Below are positions 16,665 through 61,527 of a stretch of DNA of 64,000 bases, in pieces. Source of the DNA: a virus (Duplodnaviria > Caudoviricetes); the IMG/VR virus record IMGVR_UViG_3300011008_000999, one strand, 5' to 3'. A program made the translations under genes and the position numbers. Within the stretch, counting starts at the first letter, position 1. Each line of letters starts with the position of its first letter. The notes beneath the pieces were generated by a model that searched no databases, had not been told where the DNA came from, and saw nothing but the letters and a program-made list of their open reading frames with translations.

Positions 16665-16702
16665 ATATTAAAATTAAACTTACCTTTCTTGAATAATTAT
16701 TT

Positions 16703-16785
16703 CTCCCTCATAGAATATAATATGCAGCTTAGCGATGACGGCACTATTACTCAAAGACTTATAGCTTCCTTTGCTCCCTGCATAT
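16703..16785 (-). ncRNA. Structured RNA motif, copy B
   Basis: Homologous to 17529-17610 with compensatory changes in two stems. Confidence 0.6.
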
Positions 16786-17214
16786 TTAATTGTAGAGATA
16801 CTCGTATATCTCCAATGCTGACATTTCTTTTTCTTCACCAGCAATTCTAACTTTAATCTTTTCATCCTTGTCAAATTCTCTACCAGTGATCCAAACTTTT
16901 CCTGTCCAATCAGTAGGCTTGTAGTCTGCCATATCATTCAGACCTATTTTCTGCATCTTCTTATTTCGAGAATACATAACAGATCTACCTATTCTCAAAA
17001 TTTCTGCAGCTTCTTGAACTGAGTTAGCAACTGCAACTACACCATTCATTCCTTTAAAAGGATAAAATTCTGTCTGTTTTATATCAACTAACGCAACTGA
17101 TATTTTATTGTTATGTTCAATTTATTTTAGGCACTAGGCCTAAATACAATGGAATATGACATTCCTCAAAGTAACACTATTGTGCGAAATGAGTCCTCGT
17201 TTAGCTGTCTCCAT
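16786..17214 (-). CDS. FtsK-like ATPase fragment 2 with 12-aa intein C-tag, interrupted by a 24-nt stop-containing insert
   Basis: RBS AAGGAGGTG; METAKRGLISHN|SVTLRNVIFHCI[24 nt]EHNNKISVALVDIKQTEF aligns without gaps to the post-Walker-A region of the 42370 gene; in frame with ORF 16786-17049. Confidence 0.75.
17119..17145 (-). other. Candidate translational bypass (byp-like) element or micro-intron
   Basis: ATT TAG GCC TAG TGC CTA AAA TAA ATT: matched ATT codons, stop right after the first, hairpin TTTAGGC-CTAGT-GCCTAAA. Confidence 0.55.
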
Positions 17215-17521
17215 TGTAATCATCACCTCCTTTTATAAACTGTTTAGTTTGAGCTATATTTTTACATTGTTTACAACAATACATCTGATAACCTCTTGTA
17301 AAGTTAATGTACTTAGTAGGTTTATTACAAACTAAACATTTCCCTTCATTATTAGATTTTATATATGTATCATAATATTCTTTGCAAGTAATCTGTTCAT
17401 CAAATCTAATATGCGCAGACAGATAATTACCATTTTGAAAAGTCTGATTACATATTAGACATGTCATTGGATTATTTTTTATTTTAGGTACATATTCTTT
17501 TCCACAAATAAGACATTTCAT
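17201..17521 (-). CDS. Zinc-finger protein homologous to the N-terminal domain of the intron endonucleases; no nuclease domain
   Basis: CxxC...H...EYYDxYIK...CLVCNKPTKY...GY..YC..C as in 37323, 39323 and 41284. Confidence 0.7.
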   Translation of the reverse strand: MKCLICGKEYVPKIKNNPMTCLICNQTFQNGNYLSAHIRFDEQITCKEYYDTYIKSNNEGKCLVCNKPTKYINFTRGYQMYCCKQCKNIAQTKQFIKGGDDYNGDS

Positions 17522-17528
17522 GTTATTT

Positions 17529-17610
17529 CTCCTTAATAGAAATATAATAAAGCAGCTTGATGATTAAGGCATCATTATCTCTTTAGTTAGCTAGACCAAA
17601 GCTACCTGCT
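17529..17610 (-). ncRNA. Structured 5'-leader RNA motif, copy A (putative RBS-sequestering pseudoknot)
   Basis: GCAG/CUGC closing stem, two hairpins, loop CCUUAAU complementary to AUUAAGG overlapping the RBS of 17521. Confidence 0.6.
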
Positions 17611-19134
17611 GTATTATTAAATAGTCTTAGTACATAAGTCGTGTTTCTCCATGATTAGTAAGAACAAATAAAGTTTCTTCTGATTTCTTTATTACATAAT
17701 TCTTAAGTTCATAGTCATAAATCTGAATTTCAGTATCTGTAGGAATAGATTTAAGATATAACATATCCCATTTAATATTCATGACTTTTTCTAAGTCATC
17801 TTCAGATGCAAAATCTTTGAATCCTAAAGTTTTTCCTGAGCTATACATAAGGCCTATAAGATTTCCAGCTTTAGAAAGTTTATAGGCGTCTCTAATCAAT
17901 TTTTCTAACATAGTCATACCTCCTATTTAAGTCTTTTGACTTTTTATTATTAGCTAACCTCTCTGATCAAATTCCCAACCTTTTTTATCATCATACCAAA
18001 AAGTGAGGAAAGTACAACCATTAGATCCACCAGATGGATGAGTATATCTAAAACTTGCAGTTCCCCAATAATGAGGTATAGTTTCTTCTCCATCATCTGA
18101 TCTACAGTATACTTCAGAGTTAAAATTAGCAATATAGATTTCTTTAAACATAAGCTTTAAGAATCCAACCTGATCTGCTAAATCCTGAGATTCAAAATCA
18201 ATAATTATAGTACCTCTAGATTCTCTTACTTTCTTAGTAAATTTAAGATCAGTTAGATCAGTAAGTCTTCTAAGTTCTGAATATAACTCCTCCATAGGAA
18301 TATTTTCAGCCCATTCTAAAAGTTGTTCTTGTGTCATATCATAATCCTCCGCATTATGAGTCTTTTATCTTATCGAAATGAATTTCCCTATAATGATTAT
18401 TTATATCATTATATCGATTAATTGCTTCTTTAAGATTAAAATTAGTATTTTCAAAAGTTACACCTTTGCTGCTTCCTATATAATTTCCTCTTTCATTATA
18501 GAATCCAGATCCTATAACAAAATTCCACTCATTTATATGTTCATCAGCATCACTATTAAGCTTATCATATAATGTAAATCTACCATGAAGTCCTTCTTCA
18601 TCTAATTCAATATTAGCAAATCCATCAATTATATCTGGAATATTGTCTCTACCAGTAGTATAAGTATTAATAAAACACCAATACAGTAATTCTTTAGTAG
18701 ATCCAGTTTCAATACTCTTTGCTAATACTGGAACTAACATGTGCCACTTAACATTCCAAATTGAATTTGGATTAGTTAGTTTATCTTGCCACTCTTCATC
18801 TTCTTTTTCTTTCTTAAGTCTCTTTTCGCGCTGTTCGTCAGTTTCTCTTATAATTGCAAACTGTAACTGTTCTTTACTAGGTTTAACATCTTCATATTTC
18901 ATTAGTAACTTTAGTAAATAATCACTTATAGGTGCTGCTGCATGAATTTCAAATGGAAGATCAAATATATGAAACTTATCTGAATTATAATCAATATCAG
19001 CTTTATCTTGTCTATGCGACTCTAACCATTTTTTATCTTCATCAGAAAAGATATAACCAGTACGTCTTTCTAAATCAGATATAGTCTGATTTCCTAGATA
19101 TATTGCCATGGCTATGTACTCCTATTTTCTTAAC

Positions 19135-23408: not shown

Positions 23409-23765
23409 TTACTGCACATAGATCGCGAATTGATGATCTGGTGCATCAGTAGTAATACATTGTACTATTTCAGGATCTATTTTTCTAATAGATTTAATAG
23501 TTGGTCCGTCTTTTGTTCCAACATGTCTACCTTTATACCAATCAAATTCTTGATATATACCTTCAGCATCAATTGTGTACATTTTATCATTTATGAATAC
23601 ATTCCACTGATGCACATTAGAACATTTAACTTTACCATTACTAAATGTAATTTCATACATATTGTAAGATACTTTAGCAGTAGTCTTTTCAATTACTTTA
23701 TGAAACTGTCCATCAGTTCCTAGTACTAAGTCACCTACTTCAACCTCTTCAATAGTTTTCTTCAT
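23409..23765 (-). CDS. Free-standing intein/Hint core (blocks N2, B, F; no block A, block G or exteins), class-3-like
   Basis: KTIEEVEVGDLVLGTDG, CSNVHQW (block B His + Trp), VQCITTDAPDHQF (block F Cys). Confidence 0.8.
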   Translation of the reverse strand: MKKTIEEVEVGDLVLGTDGQFHKVIEKTTAKVSYNMYEITFSNGKVKCSNVHQWNVFINDKMYTIDAEGIYQEFDWYKGRHVGTKDGPTIKSIRKIDPEIVQCITTDAPDHQFAIYVQ

Positions 23766-39600: not shown

Positions 39601-42370
39601 ATTTAGTTGACTTATATCCATGTTTAGCATCTGGATAAATACTTAAAAGTTGCTTATAACATAAATCTTCTGTCTTTGATACCTTAAATGAATGATTCTT
39701 CTTTTTAGTCAGATAACTTTTATGTTTAATTTCAGCTTTTTCTTTATCTGACTTCGACATATATGCATCTCTATGCTTTTGACCAATAATCTTCATTTCT
39801 TCTTCAGTTTTACTATCAAATGTAGCTTGTCTTTTTGCGTAAATTGCTTTCTTTTCTTCATCAGATTTAGCATAATATTTGTCTGAAATTTTTTGCTTTA
39901 CTGATTCTGCAGCAAATGGACTTGTTGTTCCATATACCTTAAGACAAGTTTCTTTATACTTCTTACTATTATTATATGTTTCATCTCCATACTTTTCTTG
40001 ACAAGTAGATTTTCTTTTAAGAATAGATTTTTGTTTTTCATCATTTGTTCTATTTAATAAAGACTCACTCGTCTTATTTGGATTATTGTATGTAGGAGTT
40101 CCATACCTAATAGTTTTAGTAGTTTTAACTGAATCAGAATGTATAGTAGATTTATTTAAGCATGATCTAGAACAATACTTATTATAACCTTTGAAAATAT
40201 CTTTAAAGCTTGTAGGTTTACCACATACTGTACATATGCCTTTTCCAAAGTACATATCATAATATGTTTGTTGACTAACATTATGTTGTTCTAAATGTTT
40301 CTTAAACAACCTATTTGAAATTGGTTGATTACATATTCTACACATTGTTTCATTCATTCTAATCTCTCCTTAGACTATATCTTTACCTTCAACTTAATGG
40401 TCAGGTAGTCACCGCTTCGCTTTCGCTACTCCTTTTCAGGATAGTCGTTGAACTTTCCTCTATTCGAGACTTAGCTGCTGATTGCTCATTATTTCAGTGT
40501 TTAGGATTTAACCATGCACCATCTTAATGTTTCTTTCTACTTTCGTCGCATTCACACTTACGTATATTTCATCGTTATGTTGTAGCACATTAAGCATTAG
40601 AGTTGTCGTCCCAGCAATTCAATGACCATATTCTTGCGCATATTTCTATACGCCCAGGCCAATAATTTTATAAAATCAACCTGCATCTGTTCCATGAACT
40701 TAAATCGGTCCATCATAATCTGTTGGAAATTTGCTACAGCGTCTGCGGCCGTAGGTACATCCAAAGCTACTCCTTTTACGCCCTTTCGGATAACTTCATA
40801 TTTTTCAATACAAACCTGACTATATCTCGTATCTAAAATGATTATCTAAACTGATTATACCATTGATTATCTCCAAATTTTTCTATACAGTAATCCAAAT
40901 ATTTCTGAATATCAGATCTTACCCAAAGAACTACATTATGCGCATCCATACGTTGCTGTTTTGCTTTATCTTTTAATGTAAGATCTTCATCTAGAAACTG
41001 ATCACCTTTAATTTCAATAATTTCATCTTCAATAATAAAATCTGGAAAATAATAGCATTCTTTACCTTCATCATTAGTATATTTGAATCTGAGTGGTTCT
41101 CTTTCGATATGGATTTTATGGTCTATACAATAGATATATACTGCTAATTCCCAAGAACTATCAAAATTTAGAGAATCATACTTATAATGTTTCATAGTTT
41201 TTACATGAATCTCATGATTTTGTTGTGGATTTTCACATCCAAATCTTTGTAAATTAGTTTCTTTTATCTTTTGTTTACCATATTCAGAACCCCCATACAT
41301 TTTCTGTACCATAGCGTTCTTGCATAGTCTGTTTAGATTTTTCTTTTACAGTTTCACCTTGTAAAGAACATGTATTACCATATCTAGACATATTTGTGGA
41401 TTGTGTTTTTAATTTGATTTCTGGTCTTTGCTGTGCATTTTCTACACCATATTTCTTTAAGTTAGCCTCTTTAATCTTTTGCTTTACTGCATCAGCAGCA
41501 TAAGGATTGCTAACTCCATATTTTGATTGTATTGTTTGTTTAACTTTATCTTGTGTTTCTTTAGTAGAAAAAGATGTAGGATAACCATATTTCTTTATAT
41601 TAGTATCTAATCTTTTGATTTGAACATTTTTATCATTATTCATACAGTTCTTATCACAATGTTGTCTATAACCAGATTTCATACTAATAAATTCTGTTGG
41701 TTTACCACAAGTAAGACAAACTCCTTCTTTATCAGATTTTATGTACAGATCATAATACTCTTTATTAGTCAAATTATGATGTTTTACATGCCATGACATT
41801 GATTTATCAGATTCAAATTCTTCTCCACATATTTTACATATAATCATTTCAAATACTCCTATCACTTTCAACTGTAACTCATCTTCAGTCGTACTCTCCT
41901 CACGGAGATAGTCGATACACCTTCAATTAAGCTTGGCACGGTATTACCTGCTATCTTACGAAAGACCGTAGGATCTCTTAGTCAGCTGCTTCGTCTATGG
42001 CCTAAGGCTATATATCTTGTTGTAACACTTCATATAGCAGTCTTATTCAACTGATACCGTTAGCAATATAGAATAAGATCTATATCACACCCTTGAGTAA
42101 TGAGGTTCAATAGGAATGCGCAAAGCTACTTACGCCACGTAAAAGGTTAAATTCTACTCTTTTACAGTCCACACCTACAAGTTGGAATCGATCTGAGTAT
42201 CTAGATACATGGCCTACGATACTCTGTTCACAAACAGATTTACCTGAATTGTGGAATACCGTTCCATCAGGCATTAAGTACATAGGGTCATCTTCTAGTG
42301 AGAATCCAAAGTAAGTGTCGGTTTTCTTTAGTGGTCGTACTTCAAAATCGACCTGTTTAACCACACTCAT
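36643..42370 (-). CDS. FtsK/SpoIIIE ATPase C-half with 41-aa intein C-tag; exons 42370-42132, 40786-40679, 39328-38674, 37317-36643 (558 aa spliced)
   Basis: ...DGTVFHN|SGKS; Walker B LFLADE; IARLGRAAAVHLALACQR; exon joins keep frame (LRGV-KGVKG, QMQV-NNVY, QPEN-DWEF). Confidence 0.88.
37318..38673 (-). mobile_element. Group I intron 3
   Basis: 5' exon GGAGAAU pairs with IGS GUUCUCC; UCCCAGU pairs with 3' exon (G)ACUGGGA (P10); P7 GACUA/UAGUC; terminal G. Confidence 0.88.
37323..38264 (-). CDS. Intron 3 homing endonuclease (Zn finger + KYG repeats + PD-(D/E)XK/Vsr-like domain)
   Basis: CKICG, KYG repeats, CDFYLP..IEING.WHH; lies after the S element. Confidence 0.8.
   Translation of the reverse strand: MKVKARLIMICKICGQDVKNKGITSHLRKHKMSDKEYYDKYVKSGLDGICKVCGKPTKFFGNVLGYGTYCGNSCAQKDIETRQKYEQTCLDKYGATNVYASTYGKDKIKETCLNKYGTEYAFQSEHVKEQIKHTNLKKYGCENPQQNQEIKAKTNQTNITKYGNKCAVQNPTLWKKAVHTMKKNGNYSKLEDTLEQFFIQNKIEYIAQYKEVRYPFHCDFYLPAYDMFIEINGYWHHNGHFFNKRNKKDLETVQIWTNKAKTRPQYKVALYVWTNKDVQKCKCAKKNKLNYIVLWSKNEVQQFIQNFTNYTTT
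39323..40357 (-). CDS. Intron 2 homing endonuclease
   Basis: Zn fingers, KYG repeats, CDLYIP..IELN.HWTH; its stop codon lies in exon 3. Confidence 0.8.
   Translation of the reverse strand: MNETMCRICNQPISNRLFKKHLEQHNVSQQTYYDMYFGKGICTVCGKPTSFKDIFKGYNKYCSRSCLNKSTIHSDSVKTTKTIRYGTPTYNNPNKTSESLLNRTNDEKQKSILKRKSTCQEKYGDETYNNSKKYKETCLKVYGTTSPFAAESVKQKISDKYYAKSDEEKKAIYAKRQATFDSKTEEEMKIIGQKHRDAYMSKSDKEKAEIKHKSYLTKKKNHSFKVSKTEDLCYKQLLSIYPDAKHGYKSTKYPFVCDLYIPSKDIYIELNFHWTHGLHPYNKKTDSKKLAEWIEKSKTSKYFENAIHTWTVRDTHKLKVAKHNKVQLFVFYTKSEFDTWLSTQ
39329..40678 (-). mobile_element. Group I intron 2
   Basis: Exon CAGGU pairs with IGS GCCUG; UUAUUG pairs with 3' exon CAAUAA; AAGAUAUAGUC S element; core similar to intron 3. 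Confidence 0.88.
40787..42131 (-). mobile_element. Group I intron 1
   Basis: Exon GCGU pairs with IGS GCGC; CUUU pairs with 3' exon AAAG; R element UCGACUA before and S element GAGAUAUAGUC after the ORF. Confidence 0.85.
40842..41871 (-). CDS. Intron 1 homing endonuclease, split into two ORFs by one extra G in a G-run near 41290
   Basis: Zn finger and KYG repeats in 41284-41871; YFPDF..IEIKG PD-(D/E)XK motif in 40842-41312. Confidence 0.75.
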
Positions 42371-42531
42371 ATAATAATTTTCCTCCTTTGCTAATAATAG
42401 CATTAAGCTTATATTATTAAATAGCTTCTTAGCAACAATCCCAGTTATATAGAATATCTGAGAAGTCATGTTGTTTAAGTTTAGCTCCGTTAATAAAAAA
42501 GTTTGCTACACTACAATCTCCCCATAACATA

Positions 42532-56789: not shown

Positions 56790-57581
56790 TTAATGTACTA
56801 ATGTATCATACATCATGATAGGAGTATTTTCTTCCATACATCCAGTACCACCACAAATAAGTATACTGGTACTTGGAACTGTTTCATACAACTCGTCATT
56901 CTTATTTTGATCATTAAGATACCAGCCAATTGGGCTGACTTTTTGAGTATTTGGATTAATCGTAAGTCCCATAGGAACAATATTCCAGAACTTATCATCA
57001 TTAGGTGTAAATGAAGCTCTATTAGGAATAGGTTGTCTCTTTTTACACTCTACCATAATAACACCCTGGTCAATAAAGGTTTTAATGTAGTAATAAGAAT
57101 AGTGAATTGATTTATCTGACATTTCAGTAACAAATTCTTTCTTATCTACTTCCTTACCAGATCTATCATAGTTGATATAGATGTATCTACTATCATAAAA
57201 GATAATTGACGTACCTAAACGTTTTTCAGCAATTTCGTATACCCAATCATCAAAAGGTGCGCGTCTTAAGAATATTAACTTTACAATTATTCCAAATAGT
57301 AAGATTACTAGTGAAATTACTATTAGACCCATACAGAAATACATTCTGTATATTTTATTTGCAGTTAGCTTCATGAAAATCGGATTTCCAGTTTTAACTG
57401 CTACAATTGCTGCGACTATAGCAAGAACAGCAAAGACTAATCCAAAAATAGCTAAGAATCTACATATCTTAAATGTTTTATACGCAAACTGATGTTTAGG
57501 CTGTATACCTTTTAAGACTTGGACGTCATCATGAGAATCAGCAATACTATCATGTACTGCTTTTGCTTCTTGTTGAGCCAT
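56790..57581 (-). CDS. FtsK/SpoIIIE ATPase N-half (2 TM helices) ending in a 16-aa intein N-tag
   Basis: Ends ILICGGTG|CMEENTPIMMYDTLVH*: half Walker A followed by intein block A (56790-56840). Confidence 0.85.
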   Translation of the reverse strand: MAQQEAKAVHDSIADSHDDVQVLKGIQPKHQFAYKTFKICRFLAIFGLVFAVLAIVAAIVAVKTGNPIFMKLTANKIYRMYFCMGLIVISLVILLFGIIVKLIFLRRAPFDDWVYEIAEKRLGTSIIFYDSRYIYINYDRSGKEVDKKEFVTEMSDKSIHYSYYYIKTFIDQGVIMVECKKRQPIPNRASFTPNDDKFWNIVPMGLTINPNTQKVSPIGWYLNDQNKNDELYETVPSTSILICGGTGCMEENTPIMMYDTLVH

Positions 57582-60936: not shown

Positions 60937-61527
60937 TTAAGTCTCGTATCTACCAGTATCTGTTGATATACAAAAACAAGGTAATTCACCAACGAGTTCT
61001 ATTTTATTTATAATCATTCCATTACAATAAAGTTCAGCATTATACTTACCCATAAGATAATCTATACCTTTACAAGTAAACCAATATGTATTTTCATCTA
61101 CTTTCTGCGGTTCGCTTTTAACAACAACCTGCTGTAAATATACTCGCTTAACTGTATCAAAATGAAAATCATAAATTTCTGTTTCATCATTTGTTATAAT
61201 AGGATCAACCTGTACATCAATAGGTTCATTATAACAAAACTTTTCAACTATTGCTTTTTCTTCTAGAGTAAGTTCTTCTTCACTAGTTATTTCATAACTT
61301 TCTTCAAGTGGTACAAATGTACAAAACTTATCAAGTTCATCTTTTGCTTCTCTAGGAAGTTTACTTACGTCTATAAGTAATACATGATTATAAGCACATG
61401 TAAATTCTTCATTTCTATTATATGTAATCTTGCAGCAAAGTTCAGGATGCGTTCTATGTATCTGAGTTACTCTACTGCCGTCTTTCATGATGTCACCAAC
61501 TTTGACATCTTGCCATTTCTTTATCAT
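60937..61527 (-). CDS. Free-standing intein/Hint core with internal insertion; no block A or block G
   Basis: KKWQDVKVGD, FTCAYNHVL (block B), INKIELVGELPCFCISTDTGRYET (block F). Confidence 0.75.
   Translation of the reverse strand: MIKKWQDVKVGDIMKDGSRVTQIHRTHPELCCKITYNRNEEFTCAYNHVLLIDVSKLPREAKDELDKFCTFVPLEESYEITSEEELTLEEKAIVEKFCYNEPIDVQVDPIITNDETEIYDFHFDTVKRVYLQQVVVKSEPQKVDENTYWFTCKGIDYLMGKYNAELYCNGMIINKIELVGELPCFCISTDTGRYET

Follow-up and report, generated by a model that had tools for sequence, protein, structure and literature searches.

A putative 24-nt translational bypass in a split-intein ATPase gene of a rumen jumbo phage, and a family of shorter and longer coding gaps in its relatives

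Published natural bypassing is, to our knowledge, limited to the T4 gene 60 family, the yeast mitochondrial byps and one Streptomyces phage. In the T4 gene 60/MobA cassette, take-off and landing codons match with wobble variation and UAG directly follows the take-off codon. [quoted passage not shown] The coding gaps described here share these traits, and the features listed for gene 60 homologs match them (Manning and Atkins, bioRxiv 10.1101/2022.08.31.505936). Nevertheless, the two are not homologous. The present family lies in an FtsK-like ATPase with split inteins instead of a topoisomerase, takes off from Ile, Leu, Arg, Val or Asn codons instead of Gly or Asp, and comprises 35 distinct inserts (a count that includes related alleles and overstates their independence) of 5-38 nt at six sites in two intein-tail genes, with at most three per gene, as against gaps of 20-50 nt at one site in gene 60. 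It lacks a landing mini-Shine–Dalgarno, carries a long upstream 16S-complementary site and shows a Bacillota-type host signal. Membership of the MobA/gene 60 cassette itself was rejected, the host gene being an FtsK-like piece and not a type II topoisomerase.

The Magnusiomyces mitochondrial byps are similar in their many inserts, several per gene, with hairpin and matched landing (bioRxiv 10.1101/2022.08.31.505936, PMC5009743), but they are 27-55 nt long and are present in the majority of genes, with an unused sense codon at the A site, whereas the phage family is found in two genes, uses UAG and would be read by bacterial ribosomes. The terminase gene of Streptomyces phage phiHau3, which also encodes a P-loop ATPase, likewise contains a short coding gap (PMC10732093); there, a rare UUA codon is the trigger and a developmental sensor was proposed, in contrast to the stop codon and endonuclease context seen here. 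In fractured genes that combine split inteins with Vsr-like endonucleases (PMC2677866), the endonuclease gene similarly overlaps the intein-C/extein start and supplies start signals, but no coding gaps were described there, and the intein C-piece of our gene has only 12 residues. Synthetic E. coli stop-hops, with matched codons around a stop and nine bases giving one residue, resemble our CTT-TAG-CTT/CTC and ATT-TAG-ATC alleles, and a 2016 review knew of no natural in-frame stop-hop (both PMC5009743); unlike these constructs, the phage family sits in selected natural genes. Literature searches found no report of this insert family. Comparison of the sequences suggests, with a probability of roughly 0.78, that its members are programmed translational bypass elements spread with homing-endonuclease cassettes.

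The 24-nt insert and its gene

The window, a stretch of 64,000 nt, belongs to a jumbo phage (~332 kb) from the rumen, the record of which (G000) is complete with 331,944 bases and terminal repeats; the runs sharing sequence with this phage were cattle and sheep gut samples. A host among the Bacillota is suggested by the strongest ribosome-binding sites in the genome, which are complementary to a 16S end of Bacillota type. The gene (17214-16786, minus strand) joins a 12-residue intein C-tail to an FtsK-like ATPase piece. It begins with ATG at 17214, its frame after the gap stays open until TAA at 16788-16786, and deletion of 17142-17119 gives a product of 134 residues. Its parts, and a Hint-like core elsewhere in the window, are as follows.

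17179-17214, minus strand: intein C-terminal tail of 12 codons ending in His-Asn, with the Ser of the GK|S junction in Walker A coming next (GGGK-SVTLR in L016-L019, which are fused orthologs with no intein)
17143-17145, minus strand: take-off codon ATT (Ile24), a position used by 15 distinct inserts of relatives
17119-17142, minus strand: coding gap of 24 nt, read from the sequence as TAG, hairpin, TAG, A-rich spacer with TAA, and landing triplet
17126-17144, minus strand: take-off stem-loop with a 7-bp stem and 5-nt loop, the 5′ arm containing the take-off codon and first stop
17119-17121, minus strand: landing triplet ATT (ATC in close relatives), the first match to Ile-tRNA(GAU) past take-off, from the alignment of relatives
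16786-17118, minus strand: downstream frame, an ATPase piece of FtsK/SpoIIIE type from the stretch that separates Walker A from Walker B (sub-threshold Pfam match to PF01580, E 0.001)
60937-61527, minus strand: free-standing Hint-like core without both end blocks, from its translation (no Pfam Hint match)

In the fused, intein-less L016-L019 the Walker A GGGK continues directly into residue 13 of the window gene, so that the intein C-tail comprises residues 1-12 and everything beyond them belongs to the ATPase piece that follows Walker A. The N-piece of the ATPase (G000:4979-6298) ends in GGGK plus 15 residues, and the Hint-like core is the presumed partner of the 12-residue tail. The next ATPase piece (G000:97066) starts without an intein tail, the remaining pieces are present and open, and the piece carrying the gap is a single copy in the complete genome. 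No relative of the gene was found among GenBank phages. Multi-piece split inteins occur in two FtsK-like paralogs of this phage, with free-standing Hint cores and short intein tails at window positions 23409-23765, 60937-61527, 42107-42469 and 56790-57581.

The original prediction described a 24-nt insert consisting of ATT, an immediate TAG, a hairpin over that stop, two more stops and a matching ATT, and we confirmed this arrangement at 17145-17119. The stops lie at 17142-17140 (TAG), 17136-17134 (TAG) and 17124-17122 (TAA), and reading resumes with GAA at 17118. On its own, the hairpin (17144-17126, -7.7 kcal/mol, z -2.3) is modest, as equally stable folds occur in 5% of random 36-nt windows of the genome. 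The 26-position alignment to a paralog, offered as support for the joined frame, was indeed gapless but weak (6/26 identities, tblastn E 0.37), and firm proof comes instead from the orthologs L006 and L007, which lack the insert, are 95% identical, read straight across the junction and encode the joined form exactly. The same 24 nt also occur in an independently assembled relative, L012, in which the final triplet is ATC and the synonymous sites on the flanks have diverged, which shows that the insert is not an assembly error. No second copy was found in the genome, so the insert is not a dispersed repeat element. Searching viral contigs for the hairpin as a DNA pattern returned three unrelated chance matches only, and the window gave no Rfam match and no tRNA. 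A group I intron was rejected for the insert on account of its length of 24 nt, the missing terminal G in every register and the Rfam result. None of four rumen metatranscriptome assemblies spans 17119-17145; the nearest contig ends at 17113, six bases short, and no joints were found.

If the gap is bypassed, the host ribosome would translate 24 codons and stall with peptidyl-tRNA-Ile on ATT, probably owing to UAG in the A site inside the stem-loop. A fraction of ribosomes would then let go of ATT, move 24 nt along the mRNA and pair again with the first triplet that matches, and translation would resume at GAA to give the 134-residue intein-tail/ATPase piece needed for trans-splicing. The sequence, the intact orthologs, the insert family and selection on the flanks are observed, and the hop itself and its efficiency are inferred; bypass jointly accounts for the phase of the stops, the matching at the tRNA level, the free length and the selection.

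Amber readthrough or suppression, with extra residues tolerated in the product, is highly improbable. Public gene callers translate several alleles with TAG=Q, and 11/35 inserts are of triplet length with TAG stops only. Nevertheless, the window insert contains a TAA in frame as well, 14 of the 35 inserts are not a multiple of three in length, and the phage genome uses code 11, where TAG is the ordinary stop of 23/250 long ORFs and no CUA-anticodon (amber suppressor) tRNA was found among 41 genes called, 2 of them undetermined. A TAG=Gln genetic code was rejected on the last two grounds. A contribution of readthrough to the product is conceivable for the 6- and 9-nt alleles only. Public TAG=Gln calls on the short contigs L036, L037, L124 and L125 apparently arise from the gaps alone, and are thus a source of false alternative-code calls. 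The phage has 40 tRNA calls plus a tmRNA (G000:C1:144222-171079), with tRNAs for the take-off codons, namely Ile(GAT), Leu(AAG), Arg(ACG), Val(TAC) and Asn(GTT), and with the unusual Tyr(ATA) and Thr(AGT).

Coding gaps across relatives and their alternatives

Inserts were located by hop-aware alignment of the sampled loci, most of which carry one. Seeming hops in L016-L019, in L034 and towards the 3′ end of L035 were excluded as alignment artefacts. Insert length was set by the protein alignment, so that the last triplet was not picked for matching. The window insert is one of a family that contains much shorter versions. Four sites occur in the window-gene family, all in roughly the first 40 codons: after Leu, after Arg and after two Ile codons, the first of which is the window site. 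L041 and L095 have three inserts each. An in-frame stop occupies +1 in 33/35 inserts, while the two stop-less ones have hairpins of 9-11 bp. The landing triplet is read by the take-off tRNA in 23/35 (identical to the take-off codon in only 14) and differs by one mismatch in 12/35, and an earlier cognate triplet lies within the insert in only one of the 35. For 17 hand-picked structural types, which are not fully independent of one another, the chance of every one matching with at most one mismatch, given gap composition, has a log10 P of about -12. Where take-off and landing differ, the changes fall mainly on the third codon position (18, compared with 6 on the first and 3 on the second) and are mostly T/C. 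The landings follow the take-off codon, with CTY after Leu, CGT, AGT or CAC after Arg, GTA or GTT after Val and AAC after Asn.

A stem-loop holding the take-off codon is seen in long gaps and absent in most gaps of 5-10 nt. In the long inserts of site C the stem is constant, with a loop of 5 nt, GAAA or 3 nt and a variable spacer; this invariant stem is conservation, not covariation or compensatory change. The hairpins of site A show an A-U to G-C exchange between alleles. The matched codons, the stop and the hairpin of the T4 gene 60 layout are thus present, but its mini-Shine–Dalgarno, expected 5-7 nt ahead of the landing site, is absent in 8/9 long gaps, the window insert included. Insert types are scattered over the gene tree and do not follow it; the deep nodes of this tree are weakly supported, and thus no order of events was drawn. 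Group I-like introns of 328-428 nt occupy at least two sites of the same short gene, alongside coding gaps, in L002, L009, L021, L026 and L029-L031.

The same genome has a second gap, ATT-TAG-ATC (G000:C1:84881-84889; L042:682-690), after codon 15 of the intein-tail gene G000:84839. This gene follows a full endonuclease gene and lies outside the window, ~5.7 kb ahead of its first position. The same ATT-TAG-ATC occurs in L099 and an ATT-TAG-GTC version in G002, and relatives of this second gene have 6-, 9- and 16-nt versions. In L125 a 12-nt gap separates the Asn of the intein from the Cys of the extein. When four related genomes were compared over their whole length and a de novo scan was added, clean gaps appeared in only the two intein-tail genes, within a small set where genes lacking an intact homolog could be missed.

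This range of forms bears on the micro-intron of the original prediction. The insert could be cut from the mRNA by nuclease and ligase, or RNA polymerase could skip between short repeats, and we consider either unlikely. The phage encodes a T4 Rnl1-type RNA ligase (G000:C1:194462-195094, a domain in a 502-residue frame), the gene family has the long group I-like introns (328-428 nt), and the same UAG word after U opens nearly all inserts. However, inserts of 5-6 nt are too short for structure, there is no common 3′ end and no terminal G, and at all six sites the insert begins on a codon boundary, which RNA removal does not require. The in-frame stop at +1 in 33/35 also argues against excision, as does the end matching, which consists of tRNA-read triplets (ATT/ATC/GTC) instead of perfect repeats, so that the micro-intron is disfavoured. 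The genome was searched for RtcB, release factor and Pth, and none was found; the lack of RtcB also speaks against excision.

The identity of the landings is likewise relevant to termination at UAG followed by downstream re-initiation, with the pieces assembling non-covalently. ATT can serve as a rare start codon, and the ATPase is already split elsewhere without an intein (G000:97066), so that non-covalent assembly seems tolerated. We nevertheless regard this course as very unlikely, given that landings track the take-off codon and are mostly non-start codons, that no Shine–Dalgarno precedes the landing triplets, that three-insert alleles would yield peptides of 7 and 13 residues, and that the L125 gap separates intein Asn and extein Cys, which need covalent joining.

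Some observations count against bypass as well: the mini-Shine–Dalgarno missing from 8/9 long gaps, the 12/35 landings that are near-cognate only, and a loose link to endonucleases. Synthetic stop-hops have low efficiency, and at such efficiency the three hops within 21 codons of some alleles would cost much yield. A nascent-peptide signal at fixed distance is argued against by take-off at four positions of one peptide.

Among 20 insert-bearing alleles, pN/pS is 0.11 upstream of the gap, 0.13 from there to the first downstream Met, which is 23 codons past the landing, and 0.19 beyond; values for the first two stretches span 0.10-0.13, and pS around the gap is near saturation (~0.85). Since the stretch from the gap to this Met has no start of its own and is conserved, it is translated together with the 5′ part. 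Both flanks of the gap are under purifying selection. In insert-bearing alleles the first 41 codons have a nominally higher pS (0.84-0.90) than the codons downstream (0.73), which would fit a recoded gene start carried in by endonuclease cassettes.

These values contradict the inactivating insertion of the original prediction, in which 3-bp target duplications would mark a dead gene, and which we hold to be quite improbable. The two ATT copies are identical here, intact alleles exist, and the upstream endonuclease gene is a remnant. Against this stand the pN/pS of ~0.1 with saturated synonymous sites, including 23 codons reachable only through the hop, the presence of the other open ATPase pieces together with the single copy of the gapped piece in a complete genome, and the repeated gain of inserts at six sites, with most sampled loci having one. 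Bypass, which the original prediction had favoured over both micro-intron and inactivating insertion, is thus supported comparatively.

With such a natural allele series of 5-38 nt on one peptide background, and with intact controls, the minimal signals for bypass can be tested directly in a Gram-positive host. Because genes of this kind are missed or mis-coded by gene callers (several as TAG=Gln), they bias annotation and genetic-code calls.

Endonuclease context and the upstream 16S-complementary site

Two further features precede or overlap the start of the gene.

17201-17521, minus strand: zinc-finger remnant of a free-standing homing-endonuclease-type gene, its end overlapping the Shine–Dalgarno and start of the ATPase piece (match to the genome's endonuclease family, E 3e-18)
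17222-17233, minus strand: extended Shine–Dalgarno, a candidate signal that can pair through 12 contiguous bases with the 3′ end of Bacillota-type 16S rRNA and is spaced 7 nt from the ATG (-19.6 kcal/mol, among the genome's strongest)

Longer versions of the endonuclease lie upstream in L001, L002, L012 and L026, and endonuclease genes adjoin most insert alleles. The exceptions are L013/L014, one intact lineage with the endonuclease and no insert, and L021 and L041, which have an insert and no endonuclease. The bypass insert of T4 gives protection from nicking by MobA and is retained after the endonuclease is lost (bioRxiv 10.1101/2022.08.31.505936). A cassette-immunity origin as in T4 MobA would be the simplest account by analogy, in which inserts arise and spread with free-standing endonuclease cassettes, breaking the DNA target while leaving the protein unchanged.

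The 16S-tail duplex at the start reaches -15.8 to -22.6 kcal/mol in 23/23 distinct insert-bearing alleles, compared with only -9.4 to -12.2 kcal/mol in four intact intein-tail lineages. Only 2.5% of the genome's genes reach -15.8 kcal/mol, and in four complete genomes the gap-bearing genes are within the top four 16S sites. Across the 23 alleles the pairing ends are kept while the middles vary. The second gene has its site within the coding frame, where it is read as Lys-Gly-Gly-Asp and precedes the closest ATG by 21 nt; this motif occurs in 6/9 insert-bearing and 2/52 intact proteins.

The long site may be a co-inherited part of the endonuclease cassette or a real helper. Endonuclease cassettes supply start signals in fractured genes (PMC2677866), and ribosome loading alters recoding, with an effect on gene 60 predicted (PMC6815119). 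Speculatively, a site ~55-130 nt upstream could assist bypass by ribosome loading, by spacing or by offsetting hop losses. As a candidate signal it has not been described for gene 60, and our literature searches found nothing on an upstream 16S-complementary site as a bypass signal. It is possible, though doubtful, that Bacillota phages have an independent bypass system in which 12-15 bases of 16S-tail pairing ~55-130 nt upstream make the next 40 codons hop-permissive with almost no local signal; just as tentatively, this pairing would be the start site in one gene and lie inside the reading frame in the other. If so, natural stop-hops of 5-6 nt and up to three hops per gene would be tolerated, and endonuclease cassettes could add gaps freely.

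The endonuclease remnant and the ATPase piece are flanked by a related pair of intergenic elements (window 16700-16785 and 17530-17620, minus strand; 78% over 55 nt). No Rfam match was found for the pair, and its folding z-scores were not significant. Both have a closing GCAG/CTGC helix with inner hairpins, and the downstream member is also present in L002.
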